DNA of 5,058 nt from a virus (taxonomy: Duplodnaviria > Heunggongvirae > Uroviricota > Caudoviricetes). The notes beneath the pieces were generated by a model. It saw nothing but the letters and a program-made list of their open reading frames with translations. It had not been told where the DNA came from and searched no databases. This document shows positions 1,384-2,283 of the stretch, one piece after another (the first letter of the stretch is position 1; every line of letters starts with the position of its first letter). The stretch lies in IMG/VR virus record IMGVR_UViG_2698536458_000007, one strand, 5' to 3'. The position numbers were made by a program, and so were the translations under genes.

Positions 1384-1409
1384 AAAAAAACCCGCTCATC
1401 GGCGGGTTT
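1384..1409 (-). terminator. Rho-independent terminator after the ORF6N-domain gene (stem CCCGC/GCGGG, 6-nt loop, then T7 on the minus strand)
   Basis: Plus-strand aaaaaaa-cccgc-tcatcg-gcggg-ttt at 1384-1409; on the minus strand the hairpin is followed by TTTTTTTAT. Confidence 0.6.
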
Positions 1410-1484
1410 AAGCTGTGTGGCGTAGTAACCACTCTTAACAGGATATTCAACTTTTTACGATCGTAAAGTTTTCGGAAAAAATTT

Positions 1485-2048
1485 TTAAAACCGCATCAAC
1501 CGCTCCACCAGTTGCTCTTTACGGGCAACGATCCACCCGTGTTGCTCCAGATAAAATTTAAACCGTTCCAGAGTACATACCATCGCATCGGCGGGTACCT
1601 TTTCCGTGAACTCAACCTGACCGTGTTTATCGAAGTGGCTCAGTAATGCGCATCCATCATTTTCGATAGATGTGTTTTGTGCCGCTGGTGGCTGTTTCTG
1701 GTTGAAATAACAGTCTTCCAGTTTTTCGAACACTTCCCACGCCTGATCGGTTTCGAGCATTTTGGCGTGACGGGCTGCGCCACGTTCTGTCCAGAGGATG
1801 AGGGAGCGAACGTTACGGGCAATTTTCACAGAAACTCTTAAAGAGTTTTCGTTCTTCAACTCTCGTAACGCATCACCTTCTATCAGGAAAAAATGTTTAC
1901 CTTCTATAAACCGTTCTTTGTTTCGATTGAAATTGTTTGTCAAACGCTGGCGCTCTGTTCCGTACAAATCAGCCAGCAGCTCTGTTGTCATGACAGGAAG
2001 ATGGTTATGCGTAAGTGACGGGAGTTTTTCAATAGACGTGCGATTCAT
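1485..2048 (-). CDS. ORF6N-domain protein (phage antirepressor-like/regulatory family), 187 aa; function unknown
   Basis: Start taken at ATG 2048 (MNRTSIEKL...), which has AAGGA 7 nt upstream; the ORF track's longer 253-aa version starts at 2246. Segment LADLYGTERQRLTNNFNRNKERFIEGKHFF...LWTERGAARHAKML resembles the ORF6N-domain pattern I recall (LAELYGV...RN.ERFP.DF.F.LT...FTEQG..ML). The C-terminal ~70 aa is unassigned. Confidence 0.7.
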   Translation of the reverse strand: MNRTSIEKLPSLTHNHLPVMTTELLADLYGTERQRLTNNFNRNKERFIEGKHFFLIEGDALRELKNENSLRVSVKIARNVRSLILWTERGAARHAKMLETDQAWEVFEKLEDCYFNQKQPPAAQNTSIENDGCALLSHFDKHGQVEFTEKVPADAMVCTLERFKFYLEQHGWIVARKEQLVERLMRF

Positions 2049-2191
2049 AGACATGTCCTTTCGAATATTTTGATTTACCCCTTTTGAGAGGGTGACCGGG
2101 CGCTCAAAACCGTCGAAAGTCGGCGGGCGTATTTCCATTGCTGGTATTGTATTAGCCGCACACCCGGTCATAAACCAAGAATTCTGGACAC

Positions 2192-2219
2192 AAAAAAACC
2201 ACATGGCTATCGGGTGTGG
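2192..2219 (-). terminator. Attenuator/terminator-like hairpin followed by U7 in the leader upstream of the ORF6N gene
   Basis: Minus-strand ccaca-cccgatagcca-tgtgg followed by TTTTTTT (plus A7 at 2192-2198). Stem is only 5 bp with an 11-nt loop, so strength is uncertain. Confidence 0.35.
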
Positions 2220-2254
2220 ATACCGCTTTCGAGGTGTTTTGAGCACCGCGGGGA

Positions 2255-2283
2255 AATGTAAACTGCAAACCTGAAACTGTCAA
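2255..2283 (-). promoter_or_regulatory. Candidate sigma70 promoter (TTGACA-N17-TACATT) upstream of the ORF6N gene
   Basis: Minus-strand -35 TTGACA (plus 2278-2283), 17-nt spacer, -10 TACATT (plus 2255-2260). Confidence 0.45.

Follow-up and report, generated by a model that had tools for sequence, protein, structure and literature searches.

A probable mobile antirepressor cassette with two tandem antisense RNA units between a 933W-type Q gene and its late promoter

What is the function of an ORF6N gene that lies, with a promoter of its own, directly behind the antiterminator gene Q of a prophage, and how would its expression be kept in check? The question is raised by a DNA stretch of 5,058 nucleotides (nt) from a tailed phage (Caudoviricetes; IMG/VR record IMGVR_UViG_2698536458_000007), called here the window, in which all genes are located on the minus strand. 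A sequence-only reading of this stretch had noticed the self-promoted ORF6N unit close to Q, and this observation has been confirmed. The same reading had regarded the gene as toxin or defence cargo of unknown function, a view contradicted by the homology of its product to the AnrP protein of prophage Gifsy-1 and to the 'anti-repressor' family PHROG 2379. The segment 2537-1481 (minus strand) is probably a mobile antirepressor cassette of ~1.05 kb, placed between a 933W-type Q gene and its own pR'/qut/tR' region, in which two tandem antisense units would keep the AnrP-family gene off.

The open reading frame (ORF) of 187 amino acids (aa) proposed at 1485-2048 proved to be a real gene, since the ratio of nonsynonymous to synonymous substitution rates (dN/dS) relative to E. 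coli homologs was 0.12-0.25 and the exact protein is encoded in thousands of assemblies, complete chromosomes of 4.8-5.0 Mb among them. Such dN/dS values were found in both halves of the protein, which indicates purifying selection. The closest database cluster (99% identity) carries the name Shigella sonnei. Two other gene models were rejected: a 253-aa extension starting at GTG 2246 would overlap the upstream leader, its terminator and a structured RNA, and at the alternative start ATG 2054 the Shine-Dalgarno sequence ends 1 nt ahead, while the relatives have a single ATG 7 nt past the Shine-Dalgarno sequence.

The Pfam search that had been suggested for this protein matched ORF6N (PF10543) over aa 13-97 (E 8.8e-21; 74.4 bits against a cut-off of 27.8 bits). 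The antirepressor-type domain is therefore present, its extent being roughly the N-terminal half rather than the two thirds assumed before, with a conserved N-terminal block that reaches ~aa 115. The protein is composed of the N-terminal domain (~aa 12-115), a disordered linker (118-130) and a small C-terminal domain (133-186). The last ~70 aa, described earlier as matching nothing recognizable, indeed had no Pfam match and no sequence relative in the PDB.

The protein shares 49% identity over 184 aa (E 6e-58) with STM2616/AnrP of Gifsy-1, also of 187 aa, and the homology is full-length, the C-terminal domain included. PHROG 2379 was matched from profile position 3 to 187 of 187 (E 4e-85). The genetic context agrees as well: IsrK and C4 RNAs are encoded upstream, and the gene follows Q. 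As judged by position and flanking RNAs, STM2616 corresponds to anrP (SL2578) of Hershko-Shalev et al. (PMC4825925). On sequence grounds the ORF6N gene is thus an added member of a known family, AnrP/PHROG 2379. It has been shown that expression of AnrP increases transcription of the antQ operon and leads to Gifsy-1 induction, and that IsrK overexpressed in trans raises anrP translation 139-fold (PMC4825925); prophage induction by an AnrP-type protein has been demonstrated solely for AnrP of Gifsy-1 (PMC4825925). By analogy, the ORF6N protein most likely switches a resident prophage toward lytic growth by counteracting its repressor.

The N- and C-terminal parts differ in their history within the ORF6N/AnrP family. 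The C-terminal 70 aa are rare (11 clusters among 1.8 billion representatives) and occur joined to varied N-termini, namely ORF6N, Rha (locus L080) and AntA+Ash, apparently also KilA-N in locus L166 (by eye only), so that by sequence comparison the C-terminal domain is shuffled among antirepressor-type N-termini. A search of genome contigs with the single protein returned mostly distant ORF6N genes of Firmicutes.

Two antisense RNA units upstream of the gene

The spacer of 480 nt between Q and the gene was scanned with all Rfam models, and four elements scored above their gathering scores: isrK, c4-a1b1, C4 and sRNA-Xcc1, all on the strand of the gene (Table 1). They would be arranged in two successive units, PisrK, IsrK (a1b1) and C4 forming unit 1, and promoter 2, leader, 84-nt RNA and mRNA forming unit 2; the latter would directly control the ORF6N gene.

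The 84-nt RNA of unit 2, assigned to the sRNA-Xcc1 family of small RNAs (sRNAs), folds into a long closing stem and two hairpins and leaves its 3' junction single-stranded; among 16 distinct sequences 99.7% of cells were paired, with 4 compensatory pairs. The loop of its second hairpin, CUUUCGA, is exactly complementary to UCGAAAG both in the leader (2232-2226) and in the 5' untranslated region (5'-UTR) of the gene (2064-2058). The junction GUUUUGAGC is likewise complementary to GCUCAAAAC in the leader (2244-2236) and to CUCAAAA in the 5'-UTR (2088-2082). The site at 2064-2058 overlaps the Shine-Dalgarno sequence AAGGA (2060-2056), 7 nt ahead of ATG 2048. Unit 2 therefore possesses the arrangement of the immI region of phage P1: two recognition elements, one target pair upstream and another downstream which overlaps the ribosome-binding site. 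Both structured antisense RNAs, C4 and the Xcc1-type one, are encoded upstream on the strand of the gene.

Both the promoter TTGACA-N17-TACATT and the hairpin with a T7 run that had been reported upstream of the gene are present (2283-2255 and 2219-2192, minus strand), and the position of the promoter is kept in related units. The description of the hairpin as a simple attenuator did not hold: it ends a leader RNA carrying two target sites for the 84-nt antisense RNA, which had been missed. By analogy with IsrK, this leader would serve as a decoy. The consensus scan for promoters was by itself near chance (4 promoter-like sites, with 2.3±1.6 obtained from shuffled sequences). In 78 of 80 unique related units a T-run at the leader position separates the upstream sites from the RNA, and a strict regular expression found a promoter-like pattern in 35 of the 80. 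The -35 motif of promoter 2 sits precisely at the junction where unit 2 begins. According to the alignment, the window and E. coli EC12 contain ~200 extra nt (promoter 2, leader, hairpin-T7 and sRNA-Xcc1 element) in place of the ~30 nt that separate the Shine-Dalgarno sequence from the downstream C4 site in Gifsy-1-like arrangements.

Comparative evidence comes from the covariation of the antisense loop with its targets. In an alignment of four loci the loop reads CUUUCGA, CUACUGA or CUACUUG and both targets change along with it (three specificities at three sites). A first scan of IMG/VR yielded 59 true units with 9 loop variants, and the exact complement was found at both places in 56 of them (counted by locus, 56 of 60); loops of other units, used as a cross-control, matched in 0 of 540 cases. 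A second scan anchored on hairpin 1 gave 143 loci with 85 distinct RNAs and 44 loop 7-mers. The RNA's own loop was matched at both targets in 114 of the 143 loci, against a single match among 4902 in the cross-control. In this set nearly all downstream sites end with AGGA or GAGG; from there the distance to the start codon is usually 7-12 nt. Covariation also links the junction element with its two partners (e.g. UUUCUAG, UUCUCAG, UUACUAG). RNA specificity variants thus change together with their targets, as in immI, for the 44 loops as for the five specificities of C4/IsrK described below. Among 83 distinct proteins encoded after related units 31 were Rha, 16 ORF6N and 7 Bro-N proteins; ten of the remaining ones were checked and P22_AR_N, KilA-N and Bro-N domains were among them. 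All these domains are antirepressor-class N-terminal modules.

Several loci depart from the common scheme. In L068 the leader site is of another specificity and the RNA's own loop is unmatched there, and in L075 the leader site is one base off; in both the Shine-Dalgarno-proximal site does match. These loci may be natural recombinants whose presumed decoy no longer fits. L086 carries two sRNA-Xcc1-type copies near each other (10108-10139 and 11135-11166), and in Xylella five tandem copies ~385 nt apart have been described (PMC12189769), a spacing that leaves no room for a protein gene between them. For this reason part of the sRNA-Xcc1 family, the Xylella tandem copies for example, may work differently from the units analyzed here.

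Two further observations concern the folding of unit 2. Comparison of RNAduplex energies with shuffles indicated only extensive complementarity between the leader and the Xcc1-type RNA, and the conclusions rest instead on the comparative evidence. The sequence CACACCCG (2211-2218), which comprises the 5' arm of the leader terminator together with its loop, is complementary to CGGGUGUG in the 5' strand of the stem that closes the Xcc1-type RNA (2159-2166, minus strand), and a like match exists in EC12; this suggests, from the sequence, that read-through transcripts may adopt alternative folds.

In unit 1 the Rfam isrK model matched 2488-2412 (77.5 bits; gathering score 50) and the overlapping c4-a1b1 model 2501-2449 (50.1 bits; 46.7). 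The C4 junction GUUCCAA (2331-2325) is complementary to UUGGAAC in the loop of the second IsrK hairpin (2463-2457) and again at 2299-2293, so that one of the two immI-type recognition elements fits both upstream and downstream. The C4 junction and the IsrK loop covary, five specificities being present in seven loci. The motifs TTGAC and CGGGGCTATATT of PisrK are kept in six loci regardless of the preceding gene, which is a 933W-type Q in the window, a Q82-like Q in Gifsy-1 and ninE in Nil2. Because it is conserved behind unrelated genes in other phages, PisrK is considered a part of the mobile isrK module. The two AUG codons of Gifsy-1 orf45 (+107 and +119) are conserved within C4 (window 2382 and 2370). 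A 76-codon orf45-like ORF (2152-2382, minus strand) crosses both promoter 2 and the leader and has its end within the sRNA-Xcc1-type RNA; since the insertion of unit 2 limits this frame to 76 aa, it is uncoupled from translation of the ORF6N gene.

The immI operon of phages P1 and P7 is reportedly composed of the c4 antisense RNA, icd and ant (attributed to Citron and Schuster, 1990). The system has been summarized in PMC8546580 and PMC8201110. The window resembles it in that an antisense RNA with two recognition elements is encoded upstream of its target on the same strand, that one target pair lies upstream (a1b1) and another downstream overlapping the ribosome-binding site, that specificity variants confer heteroimmunity, and that the payload is an antirepressor (by homology in the case of the window). 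It differs in several respects: the RNA of unit 2 belongs to another Rfam family, RF02221, there is no icd-like intermediary ORF, the upstream target pair is located in a terminated leader with a promoter of its own, and the payload is an ORF6N protein. The C4 covariance model did not detect the sRNA-Xcc1 element, and Rfam does not place RF02221 in the C4 clan. The IsrK-C4 unit is already known from P1, P7 and Gifsy-1; the tandem stacking of two units and their insertion between Q and pR' are variations on this known theme.

The site between Q and pR'

The Q protein of the window shares 78% identity with Q of 933W (E 6e-81) and is only distantly related to Q21. In the alignment the homology to 933W ends at ~2538, the left junction of the cassette, where the last ~20 codons of Q are replaced, and it resumes at ~1481 with a remnant of the 3' end of Q after the stop codon of the ORF6N gene. 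This interruption is the basis for placing the cassette between Q and its cognate late promoter. The 90 nt past the ORF6N stop (1467-1379) show ~84-85% identity to the annotated 933W region of pR', qut and the first terminator [GenBank: AF125520]. A Q homolog and a homologous pR'-qut-tR', the two hallmarks of a 933W-type late region, are thus both present, here parted by the cassette. In 933W the -35 motif of pR' overlaps the end of Q, whereas in the window ~1.05 kb intervenes and replaces the end of the gene. The tRNA genes follow in both phages, the set being Met, Arg, Thr, Gly in the window versus Ile, Arg, Arg in 933W.

Since the pR' homolog lies downstream of the ORF6N gene, the gene is located upstream of the late operon and not inside it, and the proposal that the unit lies between the late promoter and the tRNAs was not confirmed. 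A hairpin with a T7 run does follow the gene; it is the homolog of 933W tR' and not a terminator of the unit's own. What is left of the suggested moron arrangement is the promoter, as neither the terminator nor the late-operon location belongs to it: only half of the classic moron anatomy is that of the unit itself. A weak Rfam Trp_leader match at 1455-1382 (24.9 bits, below the gathering score of 41) corresponds to the tR' hairpin and was discarded. PisrK was also considered as the late promoter pR' and rejected, because it travels behind ninE, Q82-like Q and other genes and the 933W pR' homolog is found downstream.

The same site is occupied in Gifsy-1, in the region antQ-isrK-orf45-anrP-isrJ (PMC4825925). 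The shared order is Q, IsrK, C4 (the STnc1160/orf45 region), a 187-aa ORF6N protein, a short terminated RNA, tRNA and lysis genes; STM2616 likewise stands directly after Q and ahead of a tRNA gene and the lysis genes. The two regions differ in several respects: the Q proteins are unrelated, the gap between Q and the gene is 480 nt in the window versus 272 nt in Gifsy-1, the extra ~200 nt being the second antisense unit, and the leader downstream of the gene is 933W-like pR'/tR' in the window and isrJ in Gifsy-1. The sRNA IsrJ of Gifsy-1 (L082, 33406-33480) follows anrP, and similar sequences were found in phages of Enterobacter and Klebsiella, where IsrJ homologs start within the 3'-terminal part of Q-like genes. 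In CobraSix, the one such locus examined (L175, 1501-1610), the IsrJ homolog is followed by tRNA-Arg, holin and endolysin. From its sequence context the Salmonella sRNA IsrJ looks like a late-promoter leader RNA, i.e. the pR'/tR' transcript. In Gifsy-1, then, the anrP cassette parts Q from the IsrJ leader as the cassette of the window parts Q from pR'. Q and pR' are usually taken to adjoin each other directly, yet the interval between them serves as an insertion site for cassettes of this type.

Similar cassettes are located elsewhere in other phages, in the nin region (Nil2) and in the early-left region (TL-2011c, PA8), and in these positions the two units are often separated by a first gene (Rha or antA).

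Proposed control of the gene and its alternatives

The following course of events is proposed. In the prophage state PisrK and promoter 2 would fire, and most transcripts from promoter 2 would stop at the weak hairpin-T7, yielding the short leader. Read-through transcripts would contain the 84-nt RNA and the mRNA, and by analogy with C4 of P1 the 84-nt RNA would be excised and accumulate. Its 8-nt hairpin loop and its 3' junction would pair with the two sites in the 5'-UTR, and translation would be blocked because one of these sites covers the Shine-Dalgarno sequence. The terminated leader would titrate the antisense RNA like IsrK in Gifsy-1; it should compete for this RNA since it carries both target sites. 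The sequence of the loop would set the specificity type, that is, the immunity type. Transcripts without Q modification would stop at tR', so the ORF6N gene would form no part of the late operon. The protein, once made, would counteract the prophage repressor, possibly in trans on another prophage.

A number of points weigh against this interpretation. P1 and Gifsy-1 are the systems from which RNA ends, processing, termination of the leader and its decoy role were extrapolated. When the full promoter-2 transcript is folded at minimum free energy, the leader pairs in cis with the antisense RNA, and the on/off logic could therefore differ from the one proposed. The downstream C4 site of unit 1 is followed in the window by neither a ribosome-binding site nor a gene of its own. 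The loci used for covariation were retrieved by sequence patterns, so some conserved RNA columns are fixed by construction, and many are close relatives, 14 of them identical to the window. In complete genomes the prophage is cut by an insertion sequence (IS) beside the DnaB-like gene, which cuts off its early region; no repressor gene was called within 8 kb on either side in these genomes, and any target would thus have to be acted on in trans. Finally, the Gifsy-1 work shows raised transcription caused by AnrP and not repressor binding (PMC4825925).

The last point agrees with a different activity of the protein, that of a sequence-specific DNA-binding regulator (an activator or an operator competitor) which does not bind the repressor, the RNA control remaining unchanged. 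We consider this unlikely: the database families bear the name anti-repressor, though by annotation only, and the structure model of the 187-aa protein, of moderate confidence (mean predicted local distance difference test, pLDDT, 73.6), gave no significant match in Foldseek. The idea of an autonomous moron, whose product would benefit the host or the prophage as a toxin, exclusion, defence or anti-defence factor and would not regulate induction, draws on the own conserved promoter, on the presence or absence of the unit among related prophages at three genome positions (nin region, early-left region and after Q), and on the gene being intact in the IS-truncated remnant prophage of thousands of assemblies. 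Weak PADLOC matches to the candidate system PDC-S05 (E 1.4e-7) may be quoted in its favour too, yet they are limited to the shared ORF6N N-domain. The full-length homology to the Gifsy-1-inducing AnrP, the match to a PHROG anti-repressor family, the immI-type control region, which in related units precedes only antirepressor-class genes, and the terminator borrowed from pR'/tR' make an autonomous moron quite improbable.

Further, the sRNA-Xcc1-family RNA could be a trans-acting sRNA directed at host or unlinked genes, its position next to the ORF6N gene being incidental. The family was described from the integron of Xanthomonas campestris as trans-acting and controlled by HrpG/HrpX, published accounts treat its members as virulence-linked trans sRNAs (PMC12189769, PMC2996969), a paper of 2025 ascribing to them host or plant targets (PMC12189769), and the tandem copies in Xylella have no room for a gene in between. 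For APSE phages one paper mentioned that a copy precedes an ORF6N gene, and gave neither mechanism nor interpretation. In contrast to these descriptions, the copy in the window is cis-linked to an antirepressor-class gene with covarying targets. The three-way covariation of loop, leader site and Shine-Dalgarno site in 44 specificities with essentially no cross-matches, the covariation of the junction element and the fixed spacing to the start codon leave an incidental position hardly credible.

The interpretation of the cassette as an antirepressor gene under dual antisense control leads to a wider proposal, to which we incline with some reserve. The phage sRNA-Xcc1 RNAs may constitute a second widespread class of C4-like immunity RNAs and not virulence sRNAs, each copy bringing along a promoter, a decoy leader that ends at a terminator, and a target located at the ribosome-binding site. 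Genes of the Rha, ORF6N, Bro-N, P22_AR_N and KilA-N types would be guarded in this way, by no fewer than 44 specificities. In the window such a unit, stacked behind IsrK-C4, would give two layers of control and two specificities. Cassettes of this kind would have been inserted independently at the Q-pR' site of two unrelated Q systems, and IsrJ would be a late-promoter leader RNA. In the searchable literature no account was found that interprets the sRNA-Xcc1 family in this way, as C4-like immunity RNAs which possess a decoy leader and a ribosome-binding-site target. The proposal would provide a concrete function for an RNA family to which recent papers still ascribe a virulence role exerted on host or plant targets. 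From the covarying sequences of loop and targets it can be predicted which prophages are immune to one another's antirepressor control, a matter of relevance to cross-induction among lambdoid prophages, those with Shiga toxin included.

Genomic surroundings

The gene is annotated merely as 'ORF6N domain-containing protein' in thousands of Shigella and E. coli assemblies, where it becomes a testable candidate for a prophage-induction switch. In complete genomes the gene order is IS3-family transposase, DnaB-like protein, 85-aa ORF, RusA, Q, ORF6N, holin, lysozyme, Rz, HNH and terminase, and the tRNA genes of the window fall in the uncalled stretch between ORF6N and holin. The features of the window are listed in Table 1.

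Table 1 Features annotated in the 5,058-nt window
Feature	Position	Strand	Remarks
DnaB-like helicase gene	4942-3530	-	followed by a small ORF
rusA	3276-2905	-	
Q antiterminator gene	2936-2529	-	Pfam Phage_antitermQ, E 2.7e-52
PisrK	2524-2495	-	TTGACC-N18-TATATT; consensus scan; putative promoter of unit 1
IsrK/c4-a1b1 short RNA	2501-2412	-	two hairpins displaying C4 targets, then intrinsic terminator 2433-2417
C4-type antisense RNA	2386-2303	-	Rfam C4, 71 bits (gathering score 45)
Promoter 2	2283-2255	-	TTGACA-N17-TACATT; 10/12 consensus matches; position conserved in related units
Leader-2 RNA (predicted)	2249-2192	-	hairpin GGUG-CUCAAAA-CACC, two target sites, weak terminator hairpin, T7
Leader-2 targets	2244-2236; 2232-2226	-	GCUCAAAAC; UCGAAAG
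Leader-2 terminator (predicted)	2219-2199; 2198-2192	-	hairpin of 5 bp, CCACA (2219-2215) with UGUGG (2203-2199); T7
84-nt sRNA-Xcc1-family RNA	2169-2086	-	Rfam RF02221, 77.4 bits (gathering score 53), full model length
Active elements of the 84-nt RNA	2119-2113; 2110-2102	-	loop CUUUCGA; junction GUUUUGAGC
5'-UTR target pair of the ORF6N gene (2088-2058)	2088-2082; 2064-2058	-	CUCAAAA; UCGAAAG
ORF6N gene	2048-1485	-	187 aa; ATG 2048, TAA 1487-1485
pR' homolog	1467-1440	-	TTTACG-N16-TATCCT; remnant of 933W-type Q 3' end ahead of it
tR'-type intrinsic terminator	1409-1381	-	hairpin 1409-1388, then T7 run; counterpart of the terminator annotated in 933W (alignment)
tRNA cluster Met(cat)-Arg(tct)-Thr(tgt)-Gly(tcc)	1295-985	-	ARAGORN, Rfam; downstream of pR'/tR'

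A promoter-like sequence, TTTGCA-N18-TATTAT (1305-1334, minus strand), ends ~10 nt ahead of tRNA-Met, at the same position as the tRNA promoter 'pT' annotated in 933W. One IS-like terminus is found at both extremities of the window (1-32 and 5027-5058), the two copies being inverted relative to each other. At 44-130 a 43-bp direct repeat occurs within a holin-like reading frame, and positions 172-361 consist of N only. Complete genomes have an intact holin gene, and the DnaB-like gene is flanked there by that of an IS3-family transposase. Considering the IS-like termini, the repeat, the N run and the intact holin gene together, the left end of the window may represent an IS insertion or an assembly join.

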